A DNA stretch of 32,000 nt from Nostoc punctiforme PCC 73102 (lineage in GTDB: Bacteria > Cyanobacteriota > Cyanobacteriia > Cyanobacteriales > Nostocaceae), in NCBI RefSeq assembly GCF_000020025.1, contig NC_010628.1, forward strand, positions 6,030,001 to 6,062,000. The letters run 5' to 3'. The notes beneath the pieces are model-generated. The model was not told the origin of the DNA and searched no databases. It saw nothing but the letters and a program-made list of their open reading frames with translations. Numbering within the stretch: position 1 is the first letter of the stretch; each line of letters starts with the position of its first letter. Made by a program: the position numbers and the translations under genes. Positions 3,401 through 31,378 of this stretch are shown piece after piece.

Positions 3401-4766
3401 AGGCATTGATGAGGGTGACAACTCAGGCTCCTCCGTTAGCAGTGCCGGGGATTTCAACGGTGACGGCTTCGATGACTTGATTATTGGGGCAGCTTTTGGC
3501 GACCCCAATGGCAAGTTAAATGCTGGGGAGAGCTACTTACTGTTTGGTAGCAGTAGCGGCTTTGGAGCTAGTTTCAATCTCTCCGACCTCAACGGCAGCA
3601 ATGGCTTCGCTATCAAAGGCATTGATGAGCGTGACTACTCTGGCTCCTCTGTCAGTAGTGCTGGAGACATCAATGGTGACGGCTTTGATGACCTAATTAT
3701 CGGGGCACCAAATAACTCCCGCTTTGCAACTGGAGCCGGGGAGAGTTACGTCATCTTTGGCTTTGCGACTAAGATTACCACTGTCACTGAGGAAGATACT
3801 GCCGTTAACATCCTTGCTAGCACCATTCTAAATAGATATTCTGATGTTGATGGCGATACCTTAAGTATCACTGGCTTTACTAACCCTGCCAACGGCACAC
3901 TGGCTTTCAACGACAACGGCACTGTTGGCAATCCCAACGACGACTATTTTGTTTACACCCCTAATGCCAACTATAACGATACTGACAGCTTTACTTACAC
4001 TATTAATGACAGCAATGGCGGTAGCATTACTGGTACTTTTAACCTGACTATCAACCCAGTTAACGATGCACCTATTACAGTGAATGATACTGTTACAGAT
4101 GCGAAAAATACTGCTGTGAGTATTGAAGCAAAAACCCTGTTGGCTAACGATCGCGACATCGATAGCACCAACCTCAGCATCACTGGTGTCAGCGCTGCAA
4201 CTCACGGTACTGCGGTGCTGAAAAATAACGGCACTCCCAGCAACTCGGCAGATGATTTTATCGTGTTTACACCAACTTGCGGGTTTAGCGGTGCGGCTAG
4301 CTTTAACTACACTATCACTGATGGCCAACTCACCAGCACTGCGAAGGTTACTATCCAAGTGGGCGATCGCTTTTTTGGTGACAACGGCAACGATGTACTC
4401 CACGGCACTCCCGGTAATGACTACCTCAATGGTGGTAATGGCAAAGACATCCTCTACGGTGGTAATGGCAAAGATACCCTCTCTGGCGGCAATGGTAACG
4501 ACCTTTTATCTGGTGGTCTTGGTAGTGATATCCTCACGGGTGGCAATGGTGATGATAAATTTGTCTTCGCTGCTGGAGAAGGTAATGGTATTATTACCGA
4601 CTTCTGCAAGGGCAACGATTTAATTGGCTTGTCTAATGGTCTGACCTTTAGCCAACTGAGTTTCTGTGGTAACAATATTATCGTGACTACTACTGATGAA
4701 ATCTTGGCAACGCTGACTGGTATTAACACTAATACCCTGATTGCCTCTAATTTCACAATCGTCTAA
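462..4766 (+). CDS. Giant secreted FG-GAP (integrin-alpha-like) repeat / cadherin-like domain / RTX calcium-binding repeat protein, 1434 aa
   Basis: Single 4.3-kb ORF. It has 14 units of about 70 aa with the motif LNLSDLNGSNGFxINGID...GDxNGDGxDDLIIGA...GESYVVFG (FG-GAP with Ca-binding DxNxDGxxD loops). There are three segments of the type TNEDTAVNI...D.D...L.....P.NGT....DG.F.YTP...F.G.DSFTYT..DG (cadherin-like/VCBS-like). C-terminal GGxGxDxL nonapeptides follow (GGNGKDILYGGNGKDTLSGGNGNDLLSGGLGSDILTGGNGDD). Confidence 0.9.
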   Translation: MAPNPAVFNLSDLDGNNGFAIAGSNLIISPRSNFSSDGDINSDGIDDLIIGGADESYVVFGNSNGFEASFKLSDLNGSNGFVISSGYLGYSVSIPGDINGDGIDDLIIGAPGASPNGKINAGKSYVVFGNSNGFGASLNLSSLDGSNGFVINGIDRLNYSDSLVSSAGDINGDGLDDLIIGVAGASPNGKFSAGKSYVVFGSDRGLEASLNLSDLNGSNGFVINGIDEGDGSGSPVSSAGDFNGDGFNDLIIAASGADPNGKFSAGESYVVFGSGSGFGASFNLSDLNGSNGFVINGIDERNYSGNSVSSVGDFNGDGFDDLIIGASSAGKFGAGQSYVVFGSDRGLGASLNLSDLNGSNGFVINGIDEGDNSGISVSNAGDFNGDGFDDLIIGAQLASPNGKFAAGESYVVFGSSSGFGASFNLSDLNGSNGFAINGIDVNDRSGYSVSGVGDINGDGFDDLSLGATFYSRVQTSRERYIIFGFATTTAPNQPPVAVTDTATTNEDTAVNISVLTNDSDPDSNPLTVTNVNGSAVTVGIPVTLSSSALLTLNADGTFTYDPNAQFETLAVGQTGSDSFTYTVSDGSFTSTVGVNLTINGVNDPPRLASVFNLSNLNGSNGFAINGIDEGDGSGSPVSSARDFNGDGFDDLIIGASNADPNGQLNAGESYVVFGSSSAFGTSFTLSSLDGSNGFVLNGIDEFDFSGSTVSSAGDINGDGFDDLIIGAPFASSNGKDLAGESYVVFGSSSGFGASLNLSSLDGSNGFVLNGIDASDFSSGSVNSVGDINGDGFDDLIIGAPTASPNGKERAGESYVVFGGSSFGASLNLSNLNGSNGFVINGIDEGDNSGSSVSSVGDINGDGFDDLIIGAPSASFDNGESYVVFGSSSGFGANLNLSDLNGSNGFTINGIDVNYRSGSSVSNAGDFNGDGFDDLIIGVSNYSRYAKPEYGESYVVFGSGSGFGTSLNLSDLNGSNGFAIKGIDEGDNSGSSVSSAGDFNGDGFDDLIIGAAFGDPNGKLNAGESYLLFGSSSGFGASFNLSDLNGSNGFAIKGIDERDYSGSSVSSAGDINGDGFDDLIIGAPNNSRFATGAGESYVIFGFATKITTVTEEDTAVNILASTILNRYSDVDGDTLSITGFTNPANGTLAFNDNGTVGNPNDDYFVYTPNANYNDTDSFTYTINDSNGGSITGTFNLTINPVNDAPITVNDTVTDAKNTAVSIEAKTLLANDRDIDSTNLSITGVSAATHGTAVLKNNGTPSNSADDFIVFTPTCGFSGAASFNYTITDGQLTSTAKVTIQVGDRFFGDNGNDVLHGTPGNDYLNGGNGKDILYGGNGKDTLSGGNGNDLLSGGLGSDILTGGNGDDKFVFAAGEGNGIITDFCKGNDLIGLSNGLTFSQLSFCGNNIIVTTTDEILATLTGINTNTLIASNFTIV
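480..1916 (+). repeat. Tandem FG-GAP blade repeats, block 1 (7 units, about 210 nt period)
   Basis: Seven consecutive (F/L)NLS(D/S)L(D/N)G(S/N)NGF-initiated units (aa 7-485). Long stretches are near-identical at nucleotide level, e.g. ctctccgacctcaacggcagcaacggcttcgtgattaacggcattgatga recurs. Confidence 0.85.
2286..3764 (+). repeat. Tandem FG-GAP blade repeats, block 2 (7 units)
   Basis: Seven more units of the same type (aa 609-1101). They are separated from block 1 by a cadherin-like domain (about 1941-2273). Confidence 0.85.
4374..4562 (+). repeat. RTX (hemolysin-type) Ca-binding nonapeptide repeats
   Basis: GDNGNDVLHGTPGNDYLNGGNGKDILYGGNGKDTLSGGNGNDLLSGGLGSDILTGGNGDDKF. This is the consensus GGxGxDxL/I/F repeat typical of type I secretion substrates. 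Confidence 0.85.
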
Positions 4767-6700: not shown

Positions 6701-6893
6701 TAGTTAGATGCTGATGAACTGCTGTAACTATTAAAACAACACTGATGACAGTGACAATTTCGGAAAAAGAACAGCTTTAATTTTAGGTAAAAACTGCTAA
6801 TGTAATATTCCGTTGCTTTGCAAAATCCGGCTTGAAAGGGTATACCACAAGGTAGGCCCCTAAAGATATTTTGGCTTGTGGTTGGAGATGCTT

Positions 6894-9524
6894 ATGTCCT
6901 TTGTGCCTTTACATATTCACAGTGACTACAGTCTATTAGATGGGGCAAGTCAGCTACCAGAGTTGGTAGATCAAGCGATCGCACTGGGGATGAAAGCGAT
7001 CGCCCTTACCGATCATGGTGTCATGTATGGAGCCGTTGAACTGATCAAAATCTGCCGTAGTCAAAATATTAAGCCGATTATCGGCAATGAAATGTATGTA
7101 ATTAATGGTGATATCGAGAAACAAGAACGTCGCCCCAAATATCATCAAGTCGTTTTAGCTAAAAATACCAAAGGTTACAAAAATTTAGTCAAATTAACTA
7201 CAATTTCTCATCTTCAAGGTGTTCAAGGCAAAGGAATCTTTTCACGTCCTTGTATTAATAAAGATTTACTAAAACAATACCATGAAGGCTTGATTGTCAC
7301 CAGTGCTTGCTTGGGTGGAGAAGTTCCCCAAGCGATTCTCAGTAATAGACCAGATGCAGCCCGGAAAGTTGCACAGTGGTATAAAGATGTATTTGGTGAT
7401 GATTATTATCTAGAAATTCAAGACCACGGCTCCCAAGAAGACCGAATAGTGAATGTTGAAATAGTTAAAATTGCTAGAGAACTAGGCATTAAAATTATTG
7501 CTACTAATGATTCACATTTTATTTCTTGTTTCGACGTTGAAGCCCACGACGCTTTGCTATGTATTCAAACTGGCAAGCTAATTATTGAAGATAAGCGGAT
7601 GCGTTATAGCGGCACAGAGTATCTCAAATCTGGTGAAGAGATGCGGCAGCTATTTCGTGACCATTTGCCGGATGATGTGATTTCTGAAGCTGTAGCCACT
7701 ACTGAAGAAGTCGCTGATAAAGTCGAGCCTTACCATATCATGGGTGAGCCTCAGATACCTACACCCCCCATTCCCTCCGGTCATACTGCTGACACTTACG
7801 CCGAAGATGTTGCATGGAACGGACTTTTAGAACGATTAAATCGCAAATCTCGCCAGGAAGTTGATTCCGTCTATAAAGAAAGATTGGAATACGAACTGAA
7901 AATGATTCAGCAGATGGGTTTTTCCAAATACTTTTTAGTTGTATGGGACTACATTAAATTTGCTAGAGATAATAATATTCCTGTCGGGCCAGGTCGGGGT
8001 TCGGCGGCTGGTTCGTTAGTTGCTTATGCAATGCGAATTACTAATATTGATCCTGTGCATCATGGGCTACTATTTGAACGTTTTTTGAACCCCGAACGGA
8101 AATCCATGCCTGATATTGATACGGATTTCTGTATTGAACAACGGGATAAAGTTATTGAATATGTCACTGAGAAATACGGTGCAGATAGAGTTGCCCAAAT
8201 CATTACTTTTAACCGTCTAACTTCTAAGGCAGTTTTGAAAGATGTCGCCAGAGTATTGAATATTCCCTACGGGGAAGCTGACAAAATGGCGAAATTAATT
8301 CCTGTAGTGCGAGGGAAACCAACAAAACTCAAGGTGATGGTTTCCGATAAAACTCCAGAACCAGAGTTTAAAGAAAAATATGATAAAGAACCCCATGTTC
8401 GCCATTGGCTTGATATGGCGATGCGAATTGAAGGAACTAACAAAACCTTTGGTGTTCATGCAGCCGGGGTGGTAATTTCAGACGAACCACTTGATGAAAT
8501 TGTGCCGCTACAGAAAAATAATGATGGTTCTGTGATTACCCAGTATTTCATGGAAGATCTCGAATCAATGGGTTTGTTAAAAATGGATTTTCTGGGTTTG
8601 CGGAACCTGACGCTGATTCAAAAGACCGTTGATTTGATTCAAGAAACGAGAGGATATCGGGTTGATCCTGATGAAATTCCGCGCCAGGAAAGAAAAGCCC
8701 AAAAGATATTAGCTAAAGGTGAACATAGCAGTTTACCTAAAGATGTACAAAAAACTTATGAATTATTAGAAGCAGGTGAGTTAGAAGGGATATTTCAATT
8801 AGAATCTTCGGGAATGCGTCAGATAGTGCGAGATTTGAAGCCTTCTAATATAGAAGATATTTCTTCAATTTTGGCACTTTATCGACCGGGGCCATTAGAT
8901 GCGGGGCTGATTCCTAAGTTTATTAACCGCAAACATGGTCGAGAAAACATTGATTATCAACACACTGTTTTAGAACCAATATTAGACGAAACTTATGGAA
9001 TTATGGTCTATCAAGAGCAAATCATGAAAATTGCTCAGGATATGGCTGGATATTCTTTAGGACAAGCTGACTTGCTGCGTCGGGCGATGGGTAAAAAGAA
9101 AGTTTCTGAGATGCAAAAGCAGCGAGAAAAATTCGTGGATGGCGCAGCAAAAAATGGTGTTCCGAAAAAAGTTGCGGATGAGTTATTTGAGCAAATGTTG
9201 AAGTTTGCTGAATATTGTTTAAGCTATGAAACGGAAATATTGACAGTAGAATATGGATTATTACCGATTGGTAAAATTGTAGAAAAGCGCATCGAATGTA
9301 CTGTTTATAGCGTTGATAATAATGGAAATATTTATACACAACCTGTAGCACAATGGCACGATCGCGGAGAACAAGAGGTGTTTGAGTATTGTTTGGAAGA
9401 TGGTTCATTGATTCGGGCAACAAAAGACCATAAGTTTATGACTGTTGATGGTCAAATGTTGCCAATTGATGAAATATTTGAACGTGAATTGGATTTGATG
9501 CGGGTTGATAATTTGCCGAATTGA
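6894..9524 (+). CDS. dnaE: DNA polymerase III alpha subunit, N-terminal split half (DnaE-n) fused to an N-intein
   Basis: PHP-domain N-terminus [17 protein letters not shown] and pol III alpha core motifs ([30 protein letters not shown]). The ORF stops after only about 775 aa of extein plus 102 aa of intein. The track start (TTG 6876) and ATG 6888 are alternatives. ATG 6894 gives the canonical N-terminus. Confidence 0.9.
6975..7003. repeat. Two HIP1 (GCGATCGC) octamers, an example of the cyanobacterial highly iterated palindrome
   Basis: GCGATCGC at 6975-6982 and 6996-7003. I found at least 22 copies in the window by eye, starting at 519, 4363, 4915, 6975, 6996, 10182, 10713, 11004, 11990, 12015, 15454, 15814, 15869, 15957, 17754, 19088, 19688, 20707, 21718, 21981, 27537 and 28529. 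Confidence 0.9.
9216..9521 (+). other. Split-intein N fragment (DnaE IntN, 102 aa)
   Basis: It begins with Cys after the extein end ...KFAEY| : [102 protein letters not shown], followed by the stop codon. From memory this is identical to the Npu DnaE N-intein used in protein engineering. Confidence 0.9.
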
Positions 9525-20947: not shown

Positions 20948-21328
20948 ATGTCTACAGAAATTGGTTTGGCTGAATTCATCCAGCAAGTAAAAAAAGAACT
21001 ACTGACTACTTACCCAAAGAATGAAAATGATACACCAATACTGTGTGTAGATTCTGTTGAGTTGGAACTACAAGTCACAGTCAAAACAGAAGGAAAGGGT
21101 GGTATAAAAATTAATGTTCTCCTCGGCGGAGAATTATCAGGCGGGGTTAGTAAGGATGGTGTACAGAAGGTAAAAGTGCAACTCTCGCCACTGTTAACTA
21201 AAGAGCAGATTCTCAAAGCCTACTACAAAGAAAATCCGGAAAAATGGCAGAAGTTTTTGGAGACAACTGTGGACGCATTACTGAAAGGTGATGGGGAAAG
21301 CAACCTCAATGAAGACCTCGGTGGCTAA
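20948..21328 (+). CDS. Small trypco2-like protein (trypsin/CHAT co-occurring beta-rich domain), 126 aa
   Basis: Pattern LAEFIQQVKKEL......P.L.VDSVELELQVTVKTEGKGGIKINVL.GGELSGGVSKDGVQKVKVQLSPL. From memory this matches the trypco2 family consensus (helix, then strands ending in h.h.L.P). AAGGA lies 7 nt upstream of the ATG. Confidence 0.6.
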   Translation: MSTEIGLAEFIQQVKKELLTTYPKNENDTPILCVDSVELELQVTVKTEGKGGIKINVLLGGELSGGVSKDGVQKVKVQLSPLLTKEQILKAYYKENPEKWQKFLETTVDALLKGDGESNLNEDLGG

Positions 21329-21356: not shown

Positions 21357-22916
21357 GTGAACACACTAGAACTGAGATTTTATCCGATTGAAGGGAAGCA
21401 GCATAGCTTCAAAGTGAGTGTCGAGGGTTCATCAGGGGAAGTCCATTATGAACCAGAGCTACCTTTTCTTGATGGTGAGATTCCAGATGTTGTGGATAGA
21501 CGTTTCACTATAGTTAAAGTATTAGAGTCAACTAAGTTTGACAACAATACCTTTGAAGATGAAAATGAGCAGGCTTGGATGCTACGCACAAGCCTTCTGC
21601 TGTCAGAGGGGAATGATTTTAAGCCTGGGTATTTGGCTGCTATCGGGAGTATACTCTATCAAGTATTAGGTAATAGTATTCAGCAGGTAATTGAGACAGC
21701 AGTAGCAGATGCTAAACGCGATCGCACCTGGTTACATATTCGGTTGAGATTTCCATCTGACGATCCCAAATTTGTCCATTTGACCGATTATCCTTGGGAG
21801 TTGCTCCATAACGATTATGATTTTCTGGCACATCAAGGCGTGACTTTCTCTCGTTATATTGCCTATGGCAGTCCTTGTCCCAACTTACCTACTGTTGAGC
21901 AGCTCAATGTCTTGTTGATTTCTTCTGGAGCAGGTGATAAAAGGCTGGGGCTACAATCCTTACCTGCTCTTGAGCAAGAAGCGATCGCCCAAGGACTTCA
22001 ACAAGCCAAAAATGAAGGGTTAATCCAACTGGAAATTCTCGCTCCTCCAACATGGAATGCTCTACGAACACGGTTGCTAGAGCGTCGAAATGCGGCAGTT
22101 CCTCATGTTCTCCATTTTGATGGTCATGGTTTTTTTGGAAAGCGCTGTAACCTAGCAGGATGCCGGAAAGCTTATAAGCAGAGTGCAACTCGTTGTGAAT
22201 GTAGTGCAACATTAGGAGAAGCCCAAGGTTATCTATTGTTTGAGCAATCTGATAGCACTGCCGACTATGTAAGTGCTAGGGAACTTGGTGAAATGTTGGG
22301 TAATTTGGAGCGTCGAGAGCAACCTAATTCAGATTGGGGAGTTACATTGGTAGTTCTCAGCGCTTGCAGAAGTGGAATGTCTCGTTTAAGTGAAACTGTC
22401 TTTAATGGTGTAGCTCAAAAGTTGATTGGTCAAGGTATTCCGGCTGTGGTGGCAATGCAGTATTCTGTCCGCGTGGATGCTGCTAGTGCTTTTTCTGAAG
22501 ACTTTTACAAATCACTTGGGCAAAAAGAGTCACTGGCAATCGCACTACGGCGAGGACAAAGTGCAATGGGGATTGAAGGTAATCAATGGTATCGCCCTGT
22601 GCTGTATCTGCGTTGGGAAGATAACGAGGGAGGAAAATTATTCAAGGATTCTCCAGAACGACCAAATGGTGAGTCTCAGGTTATCCTTTCCAAGGATGAT
22701 AGCTCAGTCAACATAGGAGCTACCTTTAGTAGCCCAGATAATGTCAAACGAAAAATTCTCACTGAGCGCCAAGAAAAATTAGAAAAGGAATATACATTAA
22801 TCAATCAACAAATTGATGAAACTATTGATGAGGTTTTGCGCTCTCGTCTTGAATTAAAGGCTGAAAGGATTTTTCGAGATTTGGAAAAGGTAAAATCTGA
22901 TTTATCAAAACTATAA
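21357..22916 (+). CDS. CHAT-domain (caspase-like) protease with N-terminal uncharacterised domain and C-terminal helical adaptor module, 519 aa
   Basis: Caspase-fold catalytic dyad context: PHVLHFDGHG (His257, nt 22125-22127) and TLVVLSACRSG (Cys336, nt 22362-22364), followed by IPAVVAMQYSV. GTG start. Confidence 0.8.
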   Translation: MNTLELRFYPIEGKQHSFKVSVEGSSGEVHYEPELPFLDGEIPDVVDRRFTIVKVLESTKFDNNTFEDENEQAWMLRTSLLLSEGNDFKPGYLAAIGSILYQVLGNSIQQVIETAVADAKRDRTWLHIRLRFPSDDPKFVHLTDYPWELLHNDYDFLAHQGVTFSRYIAYGSPCPNLPTVEQLNVLLISSGAGDKRLGLQSLPALEQEAIAQGLQQAKNEGLIQLEILAPPTWNALRTRLLERRNAAVPHVLHFDGHGFFGKRCNLAGCRKAYKQSATRCECSATLGEAQGYLLFEQSDSTADYVSARELGEMLGNLERREQPNSDWGVTLVVLSACRSGMSRLSETVFNGVAQKLIGQGIPAVVAMQYSVRVDAASAFSEDFYKSLGQKESLAIALRRGQSAMGIEGNQWYRPVLYLRWEDNEGGKLFKDSPERPNGESQVILSKDDSSVNIGATFSSPDNVKRKILTERQEKLEKEYTLINQQIDETIDEVLRSRLELKAERIFRDLEKVKSDLSKL

Positions 22917-24027: not shown

Positions 24028-25005
24028 ATGGCTACAGTATCTAACCGATTAAAGTTTACGGGTGATTTCAACGCTCAACCTGAAAATCCACATAAGCATT
24101 CACCAACGCACCCAGAACCTTATATAATTTCTCCCGAATTAAAAAAAGCCGTCAATTTAGCTATCTACCTCCGGCGACCATTATTATTAGAAGGAGATGC
24201 GGGATGTGGTAAAACTCGCCTCGCTTCGGCTGTTGCTTATGAGTTAGGATTACCCCTTTACCGTTGGGATGTCCGTTCTACTACTAGAGCTTTGGATGGA
24301 CTATATGAATACGATGCAATTTTGAGACTGCATGATGTACAAACGCAGAAAGTAGCACCACTACCAATAGATGAATCACAAACAGATGAGGATGAAGATG
24401 AAGAAAGGTTAAATCATAATCCTGCTAATCCTAAGCACTACCGTAAATTTGGAGCGTTAGGAAAGGCATTTAAGTTAAAAGATTGTCCAGCAGTTGTGTT
24501 AATTGATGAGATTGATAAAGCAGATTTAGATTTTCCCAATGATTTGCTGACTGTATTAGATGAGCCTTGGGAATTCAAGATTAAGGAAACTGGGGAAACG
24601 ATTCGCGCTAACCATAAACCTATTGTCATCATTACTAGTAATAAAGAAAAAGGTAACTTACCTGCGCCATTTCTGCGGCGTTGCTTATATTACTATGTAG
24701 ACTTTCCTAATGAGAAGAAGCGATTACAGGAAATTGTCGAAAAACATTACCAAGTTCGTGAGGAAACACCCCCGCCTAGTGCTTTGGTGGAGAATGCGGT
24801 TGAGCGTTTCCTGGCTGTGTGGAATGAAGGTGGACTCTTCAAGAAACCGGGAACCAGTGAATTTCTTGATTGGCTAAAAGCACTCCACACCTTTGAGCCA
24901 AAACCATACAATGCAGCGCAACTTAAAAAAGACAAGCTACTACCCTACCGAGAGTTATTATTTAAGCTTCAGCAAGACTGGAAGAAATATGCTAAAACCT
25001 CATGA
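24028..25005 (+). CDS. MoxR-like AAA+ ATPase (AAA_5 type), 325 aa
   Basis: Walker A LLLEGDAGCGKTRLA (nt 24193-24216), Walker B AVVLIDEIDKAD (DE at 24505-24510), sensor-1-like VIITSN, and LRRC arginine. An acidic insert DESQTDEDEDEE is present. Confidence 0.85.
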   Translation: MATVSNRLKFTGDFNAQPENPHKHSPTHPEPYIISPELKKAVNLAIYLRRPLLLEGDAGCGKTRLASAVAYELGLPLYRWDVRSTTRALDGLYEYDAILRLHDVQTQKVAPLPIDESQTDEDEDEERLNHNPANPKHYRKFGALGKAFKLKDCPAVVLIDEIDKADLDFPNDLLTVLDEPWEFKIKETGETIRANHKPIVIITSNKEKGNLPAPFLRRCLYYYVDFPNEKKRLQEIVEKHYQVREETPPPSALVENAVERFLAVWNEGGLFKKPGTSEFLDWLKALHTFEPKPYNAAQLKKDKLLPYRELLFKLQQDWKKYAKTS

Positions 25006-26096
25006 GTTCCTTTAACCCCCAAGATTTAATTACTCGTGCCTTTATTCGTCTGCGCCAAAGTGGTTTTCAGCTTGGCGTGGGTGAACTTTTGGCGGCGAGA
25101 CAAGCAGTTGAGGGGGGATTTGGGGAAACTCCAGAAGAATTAGCTGAGACGTTGAAAATTTTATGGTGTCACTCTCCTTCAGAACAAACTCAGTTTGACC
25201 CCATTTGGGAATCTCTACCAGTCAATTTAAACCCCAAACTACCTGAAAAAAACCCTGGACAAGAATCAAAACCAGAAAAACATCAACAACAGGAGGAGAA
25301 ACCCCAAGAAAAACCATCACCACCGCCTTCTCAGGAAACTGGGACTGAAATCAAATCTGAACTGGAACTAGCATCACTCCCAATTCGCGCACCTTTTACT
25401 CCTGCGGAAACTGAGGATATATCTACATTACAGGCATACTATCCCATTTCCCGGCGTTCGATGATCTATAGCTGGCGATATCTCCGCCGACCTGTTGGGG
25501 ATGGGCCATTAAATGTACTAGATGTCGATGCCACCATTGAGCAAACCACTCGCCAGGGATTTTACTTAGCTCCAGTTTACCGCAGACAAGAAAGGAATAA
25601 TGCCCATCTGTTACTGCTGCTTGACCAAAATGGCTCGATGAACCCGTTTCACCGCTTCACTCGTGATTTAGTGGAAACGGCACTCTACGAAAGTTCTCTG
25701 CAACCAGAAAAAGTAGATGTATTTTATTTCCATAACGTGCCTGCTGCCAGTGTTTACAAAGACCTCTACCTGACAGAACCAATTGCTCTACAAAGGGTAT
25801 TAGCCGCCTGCGATAATCAAACTAGTATATTGATTGTCAGTGATGCTGGCGCTGCACGGGGGTATCGGGAGTTAAAGCGAATTCAGGCAACTACAAGTTG
25901 TTTATTTAAATTGAACCAGTACACTTCTTTGATTGCTTGGTTAAATCCTATGCCTGAAGAACGCTGGATTGGCAGTTCAGCAGAAATCATTGCTAATTTG
26001 GTGCCAATGTATCAGATGGATAATAATGGCTTAAGTAATGCTATTGATATTGTGCGCGGACAACCTCTCCAACACTTACATTCACCTCTCTCATGA
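25002..26096 (+). CDS. vWA-domain protein (CoxE-like, MoxR partner), 364 aa
   Basis: It overlaps the MoxR stop by 4 nt (ATGA). MIDAS-region strand LLLLLDQNGSMNPF (nt 25623-25640) and later strand ILIVSDAGAARG. A P/E/Q/K-rich low-complexity linker spans aa 78-118. Confidence 0.75.
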   Translation: MSSFNPQDLITRAFIRLRQSGFQLGVGELLAARQAVEGGFGETPEELAETLKILWCHSPSEQTQFDPIWESLPVNLNPKLPEKNPGQESKPEKHQQQEEKPQEKPSPPPSQETGTEIKSELELASLPIRAPFTPAETEDISTLQAYYPISRRSMIYSWRYLRRPVGDGPLNVLDVDATIEQTTRQGFYLAPVYRRQERNNAHLLLLLDQNGSMNPFHRFTRDLVETALYESSLQPEKVDVFYFHNVPAASVYKDLYLTEPIALQRVLAACDNQTSILIVSDAGAARGYRELKRIQATTSCLFKLNQYTSLIAWLNPMPEERWIGSSAEIIANLVPMYQMDNNGLSNAIDIVRGQPLQHLHSPLS

Positions 26097-28039
26097 CAGA
26101 TTTAGCTAATGCAGGGCAATTGCGAGAACAGGCGAAACAAGCAGTAGATAGATTTGTGCGGCGTTTCGATAAATCCTATCGACTATTAGCGTATCATGCT
26201 GCATTACCTTTGGTACTGACTCCAGAATTAGTAAACTACCTACGCAATGAGTTTTTGCGAAGTGAGCAAGTTCCTTGGGTAGCAGAGGTTGACTTGTTGT
26301 TGTCTGACCTGTGCAGTCAAGTGGGGTACGAACTTTACGCAATGGAAACCCATGTGCGGGAATATCTCCTAGAGCAAATGCAGCAAGACTCAAGCTTTGG
26401 CAAGCAGCGAATGCAAGAAGTAGCACAGGTCTTATACAGTTATGTCAGTTATCTAAGTCGGCTTAATCCCGGAAGACGGCAACAGGAAATAGAAGCTCAA
26501 CGATGGGCAGCAATGGTATATTTGGGGGATGAACAGTGTAAAAAGGCAGCGAGTGAAATTGTCCAGCGACTAATAGAAACCATTAGTGGAACAGATAGCG
26601 AAATTCTCTCTGACTCTGGTATTCGGGCTGAGTTAGCACGATTAGCACGCATTACCAAAGAACTATCGCCTCAGTTACAGCAAGAGCCTACTTTACTAGA
26701 GTCTGCAAGATTGGTACAGCAAGTTTTAAGAACATCACAGAAAGTTCCTGCGCTAGAAGAGTTGGCAAAGATTTTGACATCTTCTAAGCAGATAGTTGCT
26801 AATCTGGAAGGCTTTCCACCAATACAAACTTTTGAATTTCAAGTAGCAAGCATCACTATTCAGAGTGATGATATAGAAGCATTTAATCTTCAAATCTTTG
26901 AATTTGAAGTAGCAACTATCACAGGAATCAACGAGTCTAATATATCAAGTACAATTAATTCTGTAGAAATTGTTGATAATCTAGTATTTTCTCAAATAGA
27001 AAAACACCTAAGTAGAGTTGAAGAGTTAATCATACAGGCAGCAATATCAAATCAAAGTTATAAGAAAATTACAATACAAGGTTATACCACAAACTACCTA
27101 AGTAATGTTGCTAGCAAATTATGGAAAGTTTTATCGGCAGCATTAGGCGAAAAAGTTAATAAATCAAATTTAAAGAATGTTATTCAACGGTGGGTAAATT
27201 ATTCTCAAATAGATATTCACCGCAGTCTTGGACAAGCTCAGTATTTTATCGAAGACTTTGGGAATGGAATTTGGCTAGAGATGGTGCAGATTCCCGGAGG
27301 CACTTTTGTAATGGGTTCACCGGAAGATGAACTAGAGCGCCATGATGATGAAGATCCTCAGCATACAGTAACAGTACAGCAATTTTGCATGGGTAAACAC
27401 CCAGTAACCCAAGCACAGTGGAGAGCAGTAGCAGCACTACCGCAATTTAACCGCGAACTTGATGCTGACCCCTCTGAATTTAAAGGTGCAAATCGACCAG
27501 TTGAGCAAGTTTCCTGGTACGATGCGGTTGAATTCTGCGATCGCATCTCCCAACATACAGGAAAAAGCTACCGTCTGCCCAGCGAAGCAGAATGGGAATA
27601 TGCCTGTCGCGCTGGAACTACCACCCCATTTCATTTTGGTGAAACAATCACATCAAAACTGGCAAACTATAATGCTAGCTACACTTATGGCGCGGGTGTG
27701 GAAGGAATATATCGCCAAGAAACTACAGTTGTGGGCAGTTTTGGAGTAGCTAATGCCTTTGGGTTATACGATATGCACGGAAACATAGACGAATGGTGTC
27801 TCGATGATTGGCACGATAACTATGAAGGTGCGCCTACAGATGGCAGTGCTTGGCTTGACGAAAATGATAACCTTTATCAAAAACAAGGACGTGCCGTGCT
27901 GCGGGGCGGTTCCTGGTTCAACAATCCTGATTTCTGCCGTTCCGCGTCCCGCGTCATCAACAGTTGGGCGGAGCGCGACAACGTCGTCAGCAATGTTGGT
28001 TTTCGTGTTGTCTGCGCGTTCGGGAGGATTCTTCAGTAG
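26093..28039 (+). CDS. DGR target protein 1, 648 aa: N-terminal helical domain, duplicated FEF(E/Q)VA(S/T)IT motif, HTH-like segment, and C-terminal FGE-sulfatase (C-type-lectin fold) domain carrying VR1
   Basis: It overlaps the vWA stop by 4 nt (ATGA). C-terminal domain motifs: GGTFVMGS, HPVTQAQW, RLPSEAEWEYACRAG, YDMHGNIDEW, RGGSW...CRSASR. The last 47 codons coincide with VR1. Confidence 0.9.
   Translation: MTDLANAGQLREQAKQAVDRFVRRFDKSYRLLAYHAALPLVLTPELVNYLRNEFLRSEQVPWVAEVDLLLSDLCSQVGYELYAMETHVREYLLEQMQQDSSFGKQRMQEVAQVLYSYVSYLSRLNPGRRQQEIEAQRWAAMVYLGDEQCKKAASEIVQRLIETISGTDSEILSDSGIRAELARLARITKELSPQLQQEPTLLESARLVQQVLRTSQKVPALEELAKILTSSKQIVANLEGFPPIQTFEFQVASITIQSDDIEAFNLQIFEFEVATITGINESNISSTINSVEIVDNLVFSQIEKHLSRVEELIIQAAISNQSYKKITIQGYTTNYLSNVASKLWKVLSAALGEKVNKSNLKNVIQRWVNYSQIDIHRSLGQAQYFIEDFGNGIWLEMVQIPGGTFVMGSPEDELERHDDEDPQHTVTVQQFCMGKHPVTQAQWRAVAALPQFNRELDADPSEFKGANRPVEQVSWYDAVEFCDRISQHTGKSYRLPSEAEWEYACRAGTTTPFHFGETITSKLANYNASYTYGAGVEGIYRQETTVVGSFGVANAFGLYDMHGNIDEWCLDDWHDNYEGAPTDGSAWLDENDNLYQKQGRAVLRGGSWFNNPDFCRSASRVINSWAERDNVVSNVGFRVVCAFGRILQ
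27899..28025 (+). repeat. DGR variable repeat VR1
   Basis: 127-nt ungapped match to the TR (30586-30712). All 15 mismatches fall at TR adenines and there are no other differences. Confidence 0.93.
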
Positions 28040-28191
28040 CCCTTTATACTCTAGTGCTTTAGCCCTTTACTCTTCTTTTTTTGCCCTTTGTTAGCGTAGC
28101 GAAGCGGAGCGTTATAAATTTTTTTTCAAATTTAAGCCTGGGAAGTCCCCAAATTTACAATTAAGCAAGAAAGTAAAGCAAGTGGTAATAA

Positions 28192-29031
28192 ATGCCAAAA
28201 ATAGTTATAAGCCACACACAGAAGACAGCCCAATACTATGTAGAAGACTTAGGTAATGGAATTAATTTAGAGATGGTGGTGATTCCTGCGGACAGTTTTA
28301 TGATGGGTTCATCAGAAGATGAACTAGAGCGTAGTGATTCAGAAAGCCCTCAGCATTTAGTGAACGTTAAACAATTTTGTATGGGTAAGTATCCAGTTAC
28401 CCAAGCACAGTGGAAAGCCGTAGCAGCACTACCAGGGGTTAACAGAGAGCTAGAAGCTGACCCATCGAATTTCAAAGGAGATCAACGACCTGTAGAGAAA
28501 GTATCTTGGTACGATGCGGTAGAGTTTTGCGATCGCCTTGCTGCCCATACTAAAAGACAGTACCGCCTACCCAGTGAAGCCGAATGGGAATATGCCTGTA
28601 GAGCCGGAACTACGACTCCATTCCATTTTGGCGAAACAATTACATCAAAGTTAGCCAACTATGATGCTAACTATACTTATGTCGCAGGTGAGAAAGGAAC
28701 ATATCGACAAGAGACTACACCTGTGGGCAGTTTTGGCGTAGCTAACGCCTTTGGGCTATACGATATGCACGGAAATGTGTTGGAATGGTGTCTCGACGAT
28801 TGGCACGATAACTATGAACGTGCGCCGACAGATGGTAGTCCTTGGTTTAATGATAATGATAGCCTTTACCAAAGACAAGGAAATGCTGTACTGCGGGGCG
28901 GTTCCTGGATCTTCGATCCTGATTACTGCCGTTCCGCGTCCCGCAACCTCAGCTATAGGGCGGAGCGCGACGGCATCCTCAGCACTCTTGGTTTTCGTGT
29001 TGTCTGCGCGTTCGGGAGGATTCTTCAGTAG
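28192..29031 (+). CDS. DGR target protein 2, 279 aa: stand-alone FGE-sulfatase (C-type-lectin fold) domain protein carrying VR2
   Basis: Collinear paralog of aa 382-648 of the upstream protein, with the same motifs (RLPSEAEWEYACRAG, YDMHGNVLEW, RGGSW...CRSASR). The last 47 codons coincide with VR2. Confidence 0.9.
   Translation: MPKIVISHTQKTAQYYVEDLGNGINLEMVVIPADSFMMGSSEDELERSDSESPQHLVNVKQFCMGKYPVTQAQWKAVAALPGVNRELEADPSNFKGDQRPVEKVSWYDAVEFCDRLAAHTKRQYRLPSEAEWEYACRAGTTTPFHFGETITSKLANYDANYTYVAGEKGTYRQETTPVGSFGVANAFGLYDMHGNVLEWCLDDWHDNYERAPTDGSPWFNDNDSLYQRQGNAVLRGGSWIFDPDYCRSASRNLSYRAERDGILSTLGFRVVCAFGRILQ
28891..29017 (+). repeat. DGR variable repeat VR2
   Basis: 127-nt ungapped match to the TR. 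All 17 mismatches fall at TR adenines and there are no other differences. Confidence 0.93.
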
Positions 29032-29084
29032 CCCTTTATACTTTAGTCTTTTAGCCCTTTACGCTTGTTCTTTTTTCCTTTTTT

Positions 29085-29113
29085 GTCGCCTCATGGCGAC
29101 TCAAATTTTTTTA
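29085..29113 (+). terminator. Possible terminator after target gene 2
   Basis: GTCGCC-tcat-GGCGAC hairpin followed by tcaaattttttt. Confidence 0.4.
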
Positions 29114-29140
29114 TGAAAATATTAAAATTGATAAAATCAA

Positions 29141-29485
29141 ATGAAAGAATTATCGGTCATCCAAAAGACCTATGATTGTATTAAATGGTATGTGCCAATT
29201 ATTGAGCGATTGCCGAAAATACATAAGTTTTCTTTAGGAGATAGGATAATTAATCAACTATACGATTTATTGGAGGGTTTAATTAAAGCCAAATATGCGA
29301 AAAATAAACTTCCTCAACTAGAATCTCTCAATACAGAGCTAGATATTTTACGATATCAAACACGAATGCTGCTTGACTTCAATAAAATATCAGTTGAGCG
29401 ATACGAATATGCAATAAAATTATTAGATGAAATTGGTATTGAACTAGGTGGATGGATTAAAAAACAAAGAGAGAGGGAAAACTAA
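29141..29485 (+). CDS. avd: DGR accessory variability determinant (Avd; four-helix-bundle, 23S rRNA IVS protein family), 114 aa
   Basis: Size, position immediately upstream of the RT, and family pattern Y....WY.....LPK..KF.LGDRI......LLE.LI.A.Y...K...L......L..LR...R. Confidence 0.8.
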   Translation: MKELSVIQKTYDCIKWYVPIIERLPKIHKFSLGDRIINQLYDLLEGLIKAKYAKNKLPQLESLNTELDILRYQTRMLLDFNKISVERYEYAIKLLDEIGIELGGWIKKQREREN

Positions 29486-29505
29486 GTTTATTTAAATAAA
29501 ATATA

Positions 29506-30564
29506 ATGAAGCGTTACGGCAACCTTTACCCTCAAATTATTGATTTTGAAAATATACTTTTAGCATCTCGTCAGGCACAAAAAGGCAAGAGATTTCGGGA
29601 TAATGTTTTAGATTTTAATTATCATCTAGAAACTGAATTAATTAGATTGCAGGAACACTTAAAAGATAAAACTTATCAGCCAGGAGCTTACCGAACCTTT
29701 CACCTGATAAATCCCAAAAGCCGCCTCATTTCAGCCGCACCCTATCGGGATAGGGTTGTTCATCATGCACTATGCAATGTAATAGTACCAATTTTTGAGA
29801 GAACTTTCATTGCTGACTCCTACGCTAATCGAATTGGTTTTGGGACGCATCGAGCTTTAAAAAAATTTACTCATTTTGTTAGGAACAGCCGTTATATACT
29901 GCAATGTGATATTAGGAAATATTTCCCTACTATTGACCATATAACTTTAAAAGAATTAATACGCCGTAAAATCAAATGCCTCGATACATTGTGGTTAATT
30001 GACGCTATCATCGACAACAGCAACGAACAAGAAACGGTAATTGATTATTTTCCTGGTGATGATTTACTTACTCCTGTGACTCGTAGGAGAGGTTTACCTA
30101 TCGGAAATTTAACTAGCCAATTTTTTGCCAATATTTATTTAAATGGTTTTGACCATTTTATAAAAGAACAGCTAAATATATCCAAATATGTCCGTTATGT
30201 TGATGACTTTGCTTTATTTAGTAATGACCGAGAATTCTTAGCAGATGCCAGATTCGCTATAGAAGAATATTTAGCTCAATTGAGGCTGAAAATTCACCCA
30301 GTTAAAAGCCAGTTATTTGAAACGAAAATTGGTGCAACTTTTCTAGGGTTTAGAGTATTTTCAGACAGAATACGGGTAAGAAATAGCAATTTACATCAAG
30401 CAAGGCGCAGACTCAAGCGATTGAAAACAGACTATGCTCAAGGTAAAATTGAACTCAAGGAAGTAACTCAATCTATAAAAAGTTGGGTTGCTCACTTAGA
30501 ACATGGCGATACTTGGCAATTACGCAAACAGATATTTACTTCCCTCTGTTTTAGGAGAAAGTAG
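29506..30564 (+). CDS. DGR reverse transcriptase, 352 aa
   Basis: RT motifs: [62 protein letters not shown] (the DGR-typical IGxxxSQ), the catalytic YVDD at nt 30196-30207, and FLGFRVF. No maturase or endonuclease extension. The TR lies 22 nt downstream. Confidence 0.92.
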
Positions 30565-30585
30565 AGAAGGGGTATGCGAACCCGA

Positions 30586-30712
30586 CTGCGGGGCGGTTCC
30601 TGGATCAACAATCCTAAAAACTGCCGTTCCGCGTCCCGCAACAACAACAATAGGGCGGAGCGCGACAACATCAACAACAATATTGGTTTTCGTGTTGTCT
30701 GCGCGTTCGGGA
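30586..30712 (+). repeat. DGR template repeat (TR)
   Basis: An AAC/AAT-rich invariant copy of the VRs: ctgcggggcggttcctgg atcaacaatcctaaaaac tgccgttccgcgtcccgc aacaacaacaatagg gcggagcgcgac aacatcaacaacaatatt ggttttcgtgttgtctgcgcgttcggga. It contains 32 adenines, 29 of them in three variable patches. Confidence 0.93.
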
Positions 30713-31051
30713 TGTCTCTTCACCGCGAGAGTCGGCAGGTGGGAATCTGTCGAGAGTGCAACCGAAGAGTCCAGCCTACACCTGTGATGTCGGTGACGAT
30801 ATCCGAAAATCAAACTGGGTGGGGTAGCTTGGTAAGCTTGCTGAACAGTTACCTCACCATCCAACTATTCATATAACTTTTCACACTACTCTTCATTTCC
30901 AAGAAAAGTCAACGAATTAGCTTAATAGAGATAAATTACCTTAGCCATATTACTTACAACAAAACATCCAACTGTTTTATTTATCAACCTTGATGGTAGC
31001 TAGTTCAACTAAACTAGATGTACTATCAGTCTAATAGTTAGACTGATATTT

Positions 31052-31378
31052 ATGGTTGATGATGATGTAGGCTACGATTACCAACGGGTGCTAAAGCTGC
31101 TAAAATTTATGCGCTCCATTCGCTGTAAAACCTTGCATCCCCGCGACTTTACTGAAAAATACCAACTAACTCAAGCTCAACTAGCCGAATTGTTAGGCGT
31201 ATCCATACAGCTTGTCAAAACTTGGTTTGCACGAGAAAACGCACGACAACCAGAACAGAGGTATTTAGATCGTCTTGCTGAAATTGATGCCCTTTTAGAA
31301 ATCAAAAAAGTTATTGATGAAAAAATTCCTCCTCACCTGCAAGCACTATTCAATCTAGACAATAGGTTTAATAATTAG
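31052..31378 (+). CDS. Helix-turn-helix (XRE-like) DNA-binding protein, 108 aa
   Basis: LTQAQLAELLGVSIQLVKTWFA matches the HTH_3-type helix-turn-helix pattern. Confidence 0.6.
   Translation: MVDDDVGYDYQRVLKLLKFMRSIRCKTLHPRDFTEKYQLTQAQLAELLGVSIQLVKTWFARENARQPEQRYLDRLAEIDALLEIKKVIDEKIPPHLQALFNLDNRFNN

Follow-up and report, generated by a model that had tools for sequence, protein, structure and literature searches.

In the prototype diversity-generating retroelement (DGR) of Bordetella phage BPP-1 (gene order mtd-avd-TR-brt), information passes from a template repeat (TR) to a variable repeat (VR) with adenine-specific changes, a reverse transcriptase (RT) is paired with Avd, and the VR forms the 3' end of a gene for a target protein with C-type-lectin fold. 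In addition, TR and VR diverge right after a GC-rich, A-free IMH-like block, and a structured RNA (RT-10 motif) lies beside the TR. The locus described here resembles BPP-1 in all these respects, but it has two targets and the order target-target-avd-RT-TR, with the TR located 3' of the RT, and it is chromosomal rather than phage-borne. Its targets are of the FGE type and cytoplasmic-looking instead of being a tail fibre, and the 8-bp GRNA-loop cruciform found directly 3' of the BPP-1 VR is replaced by a pyrimidine-rich element of ~85 nt. Position of the TR 3' of the RT and several CLec targets are also known from the DGRs of Trichodesmium erythraeum and Nostoc sp. PCC 7120; in Trichodesmium IMS101, however, the candidate targets number 12 and the RT is a pseudogene, whereas our locus combines an intact RT with two targets of its own. 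A target of the FGE-sulfatase-type C-type-lectin class is likewise found in Treponema denticola, where TvpA is a surface lipoprotein, whereas the targets considered here are encoded in a MoxR-vWA operon, with no signal peptide noted.

The window, a stretch of 32,000 nt, originates from the chromosome of Nostoc punctiforme PCC 73102, with the DGR genes corresponding to Npun_F4889-F4892 (positions below are those of the window, and all features are on the + strand). Those window proteins that were looked up are exact matches to ACC83231-ACC83239 of the finished chromosome. The locus is a complete DGR that has already been published and deep-sequenced, and hence is not new: DiGReF 2012 (PMC3521204) lists it with two VRs, and the supplement of Vallota-Eastman 2020 (PMC7517822) includes its RT and both variable proteins. 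The published element (Npun_F4889, target 1; Npun_F4890, target 2; Npun_F4892, RT) is identical to ours, ACC83235, ACC83236, ACC83237 and ACC83238 being exact matches and the two VRs, RT and neighbours being as published. According to a recent study (mBio 2025, PMC12691664), deep resequencing revealed low-level adenine-specific variation in both VR1 and VR2. Since diversity in culture was barely over the detection limit there, current activity of the DGR is low, a point against the DGR reading. The same study reports that the TR RNA is highly expressed, comparable to the abundant 265-nt TR RNA of Trichodesmium, and that the MoxR, vWA and CHAT neighbours are co-expressed; its accessible part mentions no RT-mutant control. 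Deep sequencing of the VRs, which the initial annotation had suggested as a check, was thus available from that study, with a weakly positive outcome.

A repeat finder detected three in-register copies starting at 27899, 28891 and 30586, which MAFFT aligned over 127 nt each without gaps or indels. These are VR1 (27899-28025), VR2 (28891-29017) and the non-coding, AAC/AAT-rich TR (30586-30712) 3' of the RT gene. The TR consists of 32 adenines and 95 other residues, and at all 95 non-A sites the three copies are the same. VR1 deviates from the TR at 15 positions (8 A>T, 7 A>G) and VR2 at 17 (7 A>T, 6 A>G, 4 A>C), each of them a TR adenine; by the hypergeometric distribution, all mismatches would fall on A by chance with a probability of 4.8e-11 (VR1) and 1.1e-12 (VR2). 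Within the window, the adenine-degenerate pattern is confined to these three copies, with zero occurrences expected from shuffles. Of the adenines, 29 are arranged in three patches (10+9+10), and the other three are part of GAG, GAC and the final GGGA. By codon position 1/2/3, the TR adenines distribute as 17/14/1, and the TR has 18 variable codons and ~5e17 possible peptides; a single codon (AAA) is able to mutate to stop codons, which counts against the DGR reading. The overlapping 100-aa ORF at the TR (30574-30876) only mirrors the target reading frame. Exact counting and the computed alignment therefore bear out what had been aligned by hand in the initial annotation, namely 15 and 17 adenine-only substitutions, 95 invariant non-A positions, 29 adenines in three patches and an AAC/AAT-rich template; its list of codon changes is correct as far as it goes, but omits atc>gtc in VR1.

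It had also been proposed that the two VRs were diversified independently. Their mismatch sets do differ, but at six of the eight adenines changed in both VRs the same base was introduced (e.g. AAA>GAT in both), which has a probability of ~0.02 if the three alternative bases are equally likely. VR1 and VR2 are for this reason not fully independent; the shared changes, which also count against the DGR reading, point to selection or a history in common and not to entirely independent draws.

Both VRs end four codons ahead of the stop in ORFs with an FGE-sulfatase domain. Target 1 (ACC83235; Npun_F4889; 26093..28039) has 648 aa with a C-terminal FGE-sulfatase/CLec domain (PF03781, E 2.1e-54), its N-terminal 396 aa giving no credible Pfam match; target 2 (ACC83236; Npun_F4890; 28192..29031; 279 aa) comprises this domain only (PF03781, E 3e-52) and matches PvdO (5hha) and TvpA (2y3c, E 2.6e-22) in the PDB. 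Judged by these domain matches, both targets are predicted to be C-type-lectin proteins of the FGE type, whose genes carry the VR at their 3' end. They are followed by an intact 114-aa ORF for the accessory protein Avd (ACC83237; 29141..29485), which scores 141.9 bits against NCBIfam NF033474 (cut-off 80) and matches Pfam bAvd PF22296 with E 1.5e-20. The adjoining RT gene (ACC83238; Npun_F4892; 29506..30564; PF00078) encodes a protein that, among solved structures, is most closely related to the Bordetella DGR RT (8ub7_A, E 1.3e-46); group II intron RTs come next in the PDB comparison, the best with E 2.9e-17. Its translation carries IGNLTSQ and YVDD, corresponding to the [I/L]GxxxSQ and YxDD signatures of the DGR clade, to which the enzyme would belong. 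An intact YVDD box, a DGR-type SQ motif and an intact Avd were thus correctly recognised before, and the claim of a complete DGR holds, with adenine-only mismatches, Avd, RT and C-type-lectin targets each passing a computed test.

At the 3' border of the repeats we propose a candidate IMH of VR1 (27996..28035), composed of an A-free GC-rich block followed by the imperfect repeat GGATTCTTCA, with the TR counterpart TGTCTCTTCA. Past the part shared by both, the VR continues with GGATTCTTCAGTAG and the TR with TGTCTCTTCACCGC, and this junction is the same in six out of six sister strains, consistent with an IMH at the 3' end of the VR and a different version, IMH*, at that of the TR. Immediately beyond the 127 nt, non-A positions differ between TR and VR (30713 T>G, 30715 T>A and 30716 C>T); these differences are the expected IMH/IMH* boundary and no refutation. 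Directly downstream of the targets, conserved non-coding elements follow VR1 (28039..28121; a pyrimidine-rich tract with CCCTTTA repeats, GCGTAGCGAAGCGGAGCG and a T-run) and VR2 (29031..29104). The latter includes a GC hairpin ~68 nt downstream of VR2 (GTCGCC-TCAT-GGCGAC, 29085-29100; 6-bp stem, 4-nt TCAT loop), again followed by a T-run. We defined the element from an alignment of 29 Nostocales VR flanks, and nhmmer found 86 matches to it in 726 kb, all of them immediately 3' of the stop codon in genes that carry a VR. Downstream of VR1 there is no GC-rich inverted repeat, GCGTAGCGAAGCGGAGCG being found in its place. Such a repeat is required by the Bordetella element, and its lack at VR1 counts against the DGR reading; according to Wu et al., downstream inverted repeats occur in only 34% of DGRs.

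The TR is flanked by structured RNA that is conserved in ~70 loci. Its 5' part (30535..30577) contains hairpin P0 (30535-30565), which spans the RT stop codon and for which RNAalifold with 22 homologues found compensatory changes in 8 of 11 pairs, and the motif GGGGYAGGC (30569-30577), conserved in the homologue alignment. The 3' structured domain (30713..30859) starts with an IMH*-like sequence (30713-22) and folds into helices P1 (30715-21/30764-70), P2 (30725-26/30758-59), P3 (30732-40/30745-53), P4 (30784-92/30797-804), P5 (30817-29/30847-59) and P6 (30835-37/30840-42). Among 51 homologues, its 41 pairs are 95.6% paired and 34 of them show compensatory changes; the observed values were reached by none of 500 shuffles. 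A search of Rfam with the 3' domain gave no match.

For comparison we used six sister strains, whose RTs share a 90%-identity protein cluster with the N. punctiforme RT. Their TRs differ by 6 or 9 nt in length and by several substitutions, and in all nine gap-free TR/VR pairs the differences of a VR from its own TR are restricted to adenines inside the repeat. This comparison shows the flow of information to be from TR to VR. A third VR-bearing gene of the N. punctiforme genome, ACC81713, has a VR that mismatches the present TR and appears frozen on another TR version.

Kaur et al. 2020 (eLife) and Dore et al. 2024 (PNAS) described ternary conflict systems of the MoxR-vWA type, whose FGS domains are diversified by DGRs and for which protection against invaders such as phage was hypothesised; Kaur 2020 linked the FGS domains of cyanobacteria to TvpA in particular. 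A corresponding set of genes precedes the DGR. It begins with a Trypco2-domain adaptor protein (20948..21328; PF19631, E 2.5e-18) in conflict-system operon context, followed by a putative effector of the architecture TCAD3-CHAT(caspase-like protease)-EAD9 (ACC83231, exact protein match; 21357..22916; PF19972, PF12770, PF19962), which by gene order is Npun_F4885, a locus tag given in the mBio 2025 study (PMC12691664). The third ternary component (ACC83232; 22968..23975) has an N-terminal EAD9 (PF19962, E 7.8e-17), matching the C-terminal one of the upstream CHAT protease, and an inactive STAND (iSTAND) domain (PF19995, 35.9 bits, cut-off 24). Next are a MoxR-like AAA+ ATPase (ACC83233; Npun_F4887; 24028..25005; Pfam AAA and AAA_5, E ~1e-8; database name MoxR family ATPase) and a CoxE-type vWA protein of 364 aa (ACC83234; Npun_F4888; 25002..26096; PF05762 VWA_CoxE, E 3.3e-10), the two ORFs overlapping by 4 nt. 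The locus thus has both a MoxR AAA+ beside a CoxE-type vWA and an iSTAND protein linked to an effector via shared EAD9, as well as Trypco2 and FGS proteins with an adjoining DGR, as in the published systems. A single fusion protein with the FGS domain at the C-terminus of the vWA component, as in the systems of Kaur 2020, is absent; instead, the vWA protein and the 648-aa FGS target are separate ORFs overlapping by 4 nt (ATGA, 26093-26096, vWA stop and target-1 start). This is a split variant, which does not alter the similarity in mode of operation. No model of a MoxR-vWA iSTAND system exists in PADLOC. In sister strains, near-identical DGR cassettes adjoin VMAP-type or TIR-EAD9 neighbours instead.

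Taken together, the locus is best explained as a chromosomal DGR of N. punctiforme with mutagenic transfer from TR to VR1 and VR2, whose targets most likely act as sensors of the adjacent conflict operon; we put the probability of this reading at roughly 0.93. The adenine-only differences could be historical if VR1 and VR2 had been diversified formerly and the element were inactive by now, as suggested by the near-threshold activity in culture, by related cyanobacterial DGRs that can be culture-inactive (with the IMS101 RT as a pseudogene) and by the apparently frozen ACC81713. We regard such a fossil as improbable, since RT, Avd and all three repeats are intact, and none of 95 non-A sites differs, compared with ~16% divergence of the paralogous sequence next to them (the target genes are ~84% identical over the 300 nt immediately upstream of the VR); the adenine-specific diversity and strong TR-RNA expression in the mBio 2025 study (PMC12691664) also speak against it.

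Gene conversion or ordinary divergence among three repeats, without any reverse transcription, is conceivable for tandem paralogues such as targets 1 and 2, which are 75-84% identical over the FGE domain. Neither process is able to place all 32 differences at adenines of a single non-coding copy (P ~1e-11), a count that effectively refutes this explanation; moreover, six other strains display the identical asymmetry, and a dedicated RT and Avd are located between the copies. It seems just as far-fetched that the near-identical repeats are an artefact of assembly or sequencing. Short-read contigs from public runs do end precisely where the repeats do (29018, 30712), and one contig (L002) joins the VR of another gene to the VR2 flank, but the Avd-RT-TR region is 100% identical in independent assemblies, the proteins that were looked up match the finished chromosome exactly and homologous loci share the layout.

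With the DGR reading, the transcript would consist of the 5' hairpin, the 127-nt TR and the folded 3' domain of ~150 nt. We infer that the RT-Avd complex reverse-transcribes the TR into cDNA with random bases opposite template adenines, a scheme that extends to its biochemistry and priming and to a possible role of the VR 3' element. The cDNA would then replace the homologous 3' end of the two paralogous target genes, with the conserved ...CGGGA junction as the presumed 3' limit of transfer. To the published element the present analysis adds the adenine-only pattern in six sister strains, with the VRs of each strain matching its own TR, the covariation-supported structured RNA flanking the TR, and the conserved non-coding element of ~85 nt 3' of VR-bearing genes across Nostocales. 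The RNA structure, the VR 3' element and the mismatch between the ACC81713 VR and the present TR were not found in the accessible DGR literature. The anatomy, the adenine-only pattern, the tracking of each strain's TR by its VRs and the RNA covariation are established here. As an outcome, up to 18 codons in the ligand-binding face of each target could be recoded, and the diversified proteins would most likely serve as variable ligand sensors of the adjoining MoxR-vWA-iSTAND-CHAT conflict operon, a role that was hypothesised by Kaur 2020 and Dore 2024.

Three in-register copies, starting at 27899, 28891 and 30586, were located by the repeat finder, and their alignment with MAFFT is free of gaps. 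The template repeat (TR, 30586-30712) comprises 127 nt, by exact count 32 adenines and 95 other bases. The variable repeats VR1 (27899-28025) and VR2 (28891-29017) differ from it at 15 and 17 sites, respectively, all of them TR adenines (P=4.8e-11 and P=1.1e-12 given base composition). The claim of the initial annotation that template and variable repeats differ only at adenines is thus borne out; its list of codon changes survived an exact recount, and its figure of 29 adenines in three patches is correct as well. A TR pattern degenerate at adenines has only three matches in the 32 kb and none in shuffles. Past the 127 nt, TR and VRs differ at non-adenine positions (30713, 30715 and 30716) and the similarity is soon lost, which is where the divergence of IMH and IMH* (conserved and differing sequences at the VR and TR 3' ends) is expected in a diversity-generating retroelement (DGR). 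Both VRs end four codons ahead of a stop codon, and the TR starts 21 nt past that of the reverse transcriptase (RT) gene. TR adenines occupy mainly first (17/32) and second (14/32) codon positions, and the 18 variable codons would allow about 5e17 possible peptides, AAA being the only TR codon able to yield stop codons. Eight adenines are changed in both VRs, six of them to the identical base (e.g. AAA>GAT in both; P about 0.02 assuming that the three alternative bases are equally likely), a pattern that suggests either a shared history or selection acting on these residues.

The genes of the element all lie on the forward strand. Target 1 (26093-28039, 648 aa) carries a C-terminal FGE-sulfatase domain (E 2e-54), and target 2 (28192-29031, 279 aa) ends in the same domain (E 3e-52) and matches the solved DGR target TvpA (2y3c) with E 2.6e-22, and also PvdO. 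Over the first 396 residues of target 1, a Pfam search returned no domain; a tandem repeat with a period of 66 nt (26825-26856 and 26891-26922, encoding FEFQVASIT and FEFEVATIT) is located in this unannotated region 5' of the FGE domain. The accessory protein Avd (29141-29485) scores 141.9 bits with the NCBIfam DGR Avd model (cut-off 80). The RT (29506-30564), with the motifs IGNLTSQ and YVDD, matches the Bordetella DGR RT 8ub7 with E 1.3e-46, far better than the best group II intron RT (E 2.9e-17). What had been stated about RT and Avd from the sequence therefore holds. Exact protein matches of the window are ACC83220 and ACC83231-ACC83239 of the Nostoc punctiforme PCC 73102 chromosome. Elsewhere in the window, 462-4766 encodes a 1434-aa protein with 13 FG-GAP repeats, bacterial Ig and cadherin-like domains and RTX repeats, and 6876-9524 an N-terminal fragment of DNA polymerase III alpha with a weak intein-splicing match at its end, presumably the split DnaE intein known from this species.

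The element was catalogued with two VRs in DiGReF 2012 (PMC3521204), and Vallota-Eastman et al. 2020 (PMC7517822, supplement) list ACC83238 as its RT along with two variable proteins, ACC83236 and ACC83235. According to an mBio 2025 study (PMC12691664), in which the targets are Npun_F4889 and F4890 and the RT is F4892, expression of the TR-RNA is very high and target 2 is co-expressed with the CHAT, MoxR and vWA genes. The same study describes adenine-specific diversity in VR1 and VR2 upon whole-genome deep resequencing, higher in VR2 than in VR1 and barely over the detection limit. The deep sequencing that the initial annotation had proposed as a check has thus already been done, and the finding is known. 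We consider the locus to be a genuine DGR that is active at least at a low level (probability about 0.93). The DGR itself is a textbook case in a model cyanobacterium, catalogued since 2012 and experimentally probed, and offers nothing new; pieces that are possibly new are the RNA flanking the TR and an element 3' of the VRs.

Six sister strains (L029, L030, L032, L034, L036 and L038), whose RTs fall into one 90%-identity protein cluster with that of N. punctiforme, share the gene order MoxR, long FGS target, short FGS target, Avd, RT and TR (6/6 loci; FGS denotes the sulfatase-type C-type-lectin domain of the targets). Compared with the TR of N. punctiforme, their TRs show length differences of 6 or 9 nt along with several substitutions. 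Because of the different lengths, the degenerate N. punctiforme pattern is useless on these strains, and TR/VR pairs were located by BLAST within each locus. All nine pairs that can be aligned without gaps equal their own TR at every non-A position, with differences inside the repeat restricted to adenines, and the junction ending in CGGGA is identical in the sister strains. Since the VRs of each genome match their own TR, this is direct evidence that, in each lineage, information passes from the TR to the VRs. An exact-pattern scan of a genome collection in which the source genome is absent gave 18 loci from other Nostocales; neither RT nor Avd was found in these, and they were used for VR-flank comparison only.

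A further VR resides in ACC81713, a 1073-aa caspase-FGS protein encoded outside the window in the same genome and entered by Vallota-Eastman et al. 2020 (PMC7517822, supplement) as a remote variable protein. Its gene appeared in the public short-read contig L002, joined to the VR2 flank and Avd-RT. A strain with the same RT and another target was considered and rejected, the protein being ACC81713 of the same genome; L002 appears to have been joined wrongly via the common VR flank. Public short-read contigs carrying the RT (L002-L010) either begin at 29018, the first base past VR2, or break off at 30712, where the TR ends. These breaks and the mis-join in L002 are an effect of the repeats on the assembly graph. 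The VR of ACC81713 (about 3236-3358 in L002) differs from the TR version found in the sister strains at adenines only, and from the present N. punctiforme TR by a 9-nt gap and non-A differences in the 3' block. Judging from this fit, it was probably written by another version of the TR and is now frozen and no longer writable, and is thus probably not a present target.

About 150 nt 3' of the TR are nearly invariant in seven close strains, while the TR itself varies. A metagenome scan contributed another 80 loci, their RTs showing 64-91% identity, and homology past the TR is recognisable in about 70 loci in all. For 51 distinct sequences, RNAalifold proposed a 3' domain (30713-30859, forward strand, about 150 nt) of six helices, P1-P6, at 30715-30859. 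In this model of 41 pairs, 95.6% of the cells are paired versus 83% in shuffles and about 40% with slid partners, 34 pairs show compensatory changes, and each of the observed structure measures was reached by none of 500 shuffles. In P1, an IMH*-like CUCUUC pairs with GAAGAG, adjoining the invariant GAGUCCAG; in the proposed RNA, this helix may sequester the IMH*-like sequence next to GAGUCCAG. The 5' part (30535-30577) consists of a hairpin, P0 (30535-30565, forward strand), that spans the RT stop codon and has compensatory changes at 8 of 11 pairs, directly followed by a conserved GGGGYAGGC. A long-range pairing of GGGG (30569-72) with GUCC (30768-71) displays one-sided changes only and is not claimed. 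Rfam 15 yielded no family at gathering scores over the window and, around the TR, two chance-level matches at E<=10, which places the RNA outside the curated families; a tRNA scan of the window found none. Its functional analogues are the RT-10 motif, which in phage BPP-1 lies between TR and brt, and, in the Bordetella DGR RNA, the Sp region. Promoter and terminator scans remained at chance level. A sigma-70-like site (TTGAAA-17-TAAAAT, 30421-30449) lies within the 3' end of the RT gene, some 135 nt 5' of the TR; it could be a promoter for the abundant TR RNA, such matches occurring at chance frequency in the region. Similarity to the sister strains stops about 150 nt past the TR, and the region from about 30862 on (to 32000 in the window) may be a strain-specific mobile insertion. 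Downstream of the TR there are small ORFs and, at 31052-31378, a gene of the XRE-type HTH kind; beyond the window (L001, 1842-5412) there is a 733-aa DUF3854/D5_N primase-like gene.

Directly 3' of the stop codons of VR-bearing genes we found a non-coding element of about 85 nt, common to the flanks of VR1 and VR2 and to VR flanks of Scytonema, Calothrix, Tolypothrix, Aulosira, Nostochopsis and Nostoc. It is pyrimidine-rich with CCCTTTA repeats, and its consensus reads TAGCCCTTTATACTTT...CTTTTnCCCTTTAC...CTTGTTCTTTTTT, followed by either a short GC hairpin or GTAGCGAAGCGGAACG and after that by a T-run. The element is present in comparison loci L011-L038 and in many of L039-L118, and its cross-genus conservation is 0.65-0.68 versus 0.61-0.64 for coding DNA 100-400 nt upstream. 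All 86 matches of an nhmmer-type profile in 726 kb directly follow stop codons of VR-bearing genes; those in the window are 28039-28121 and 29031-29104 only, on the forward strand after the stop codons of target 1 and target 2. Folding of the VR 3' flanks gave no convincing common structure (z-scores +1.9 to -2.0), and the element is therefore described by sequence alone. It is a putative target-side signal, a putative terminator, or both. Phage DGRs have a cruciform of 7-10 bp with a GRNA loop, whereas this element lacks one; it could serve as target-recognition signal in place of the Bordetella cruciform, choosing which FGS genes are writable. Tentatively, and at somewhat less than even odds, we regard this element and the bipartite TR-flanking RNA as two undescribed cis-acting parts of the cyanobacterial DGR lineage.

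Upstream of the targets, five genes encode Trypco2, TCAD3-CHAT-EAD9, EAD9-iSTAND, a MoxR-like AAA+ ATPase and a CoxE-type vWA protein. Among the MoxR-vWA ternary conflict systems of Kaur et al. 2020, this operon falls into the iSTAND class, where FGS is the commonest effector domain and is often diversified by DGRs. In departure from the scheme of Kaur et al. 2020, the vWA protein and target 1 are encoded by two ORFs here, the stop codon of the former overlapping the start codon of the latter in ATGA (26093-26096). PADLOC has no model for the operon and returned only generic RT and CHAT matches. Residues 117-648 of target 1 share 53% identity with the C-terminal portion of a 957-aa fusion protein in sister strain L032; the CoxE-type vWA protein was rejected as a homologue of its N-terminus, the sequences being unrelated. 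Across L029-L038 the DGR cassettes are near-identical and their neighbours differ: iSTAND in N. punctiforme, VMAP-CHAT or trypsin (trypsin-EAD9) in L030 and L032, and TIR-EAD9 in L029. The N-termini of the long targets also differ (EVE, HTH_VMAP-M9, SBD). This variety points to modular shuffling, and the DGR-plus-sensor module thus appears to be paired with different conflict-system genes.

The covariation-supported RNA, the VR-flank element and the per-strain evidence that VRs follow their TR offer concrete starting points for experimental work, the strain being genetically tractable. DGR targets of such conflict systems have been proposed as antigen sensors (Dore et al. 2024), and in the view of the literature, DGR-diversified lectin-fold proteins together with MoxR-vWA-protease operons may be programmable ones. 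Such sensors would amount to a form of adaptive immunity of multicellular bacteria, and the wider importance of DGRs of this kind is already recognised there.
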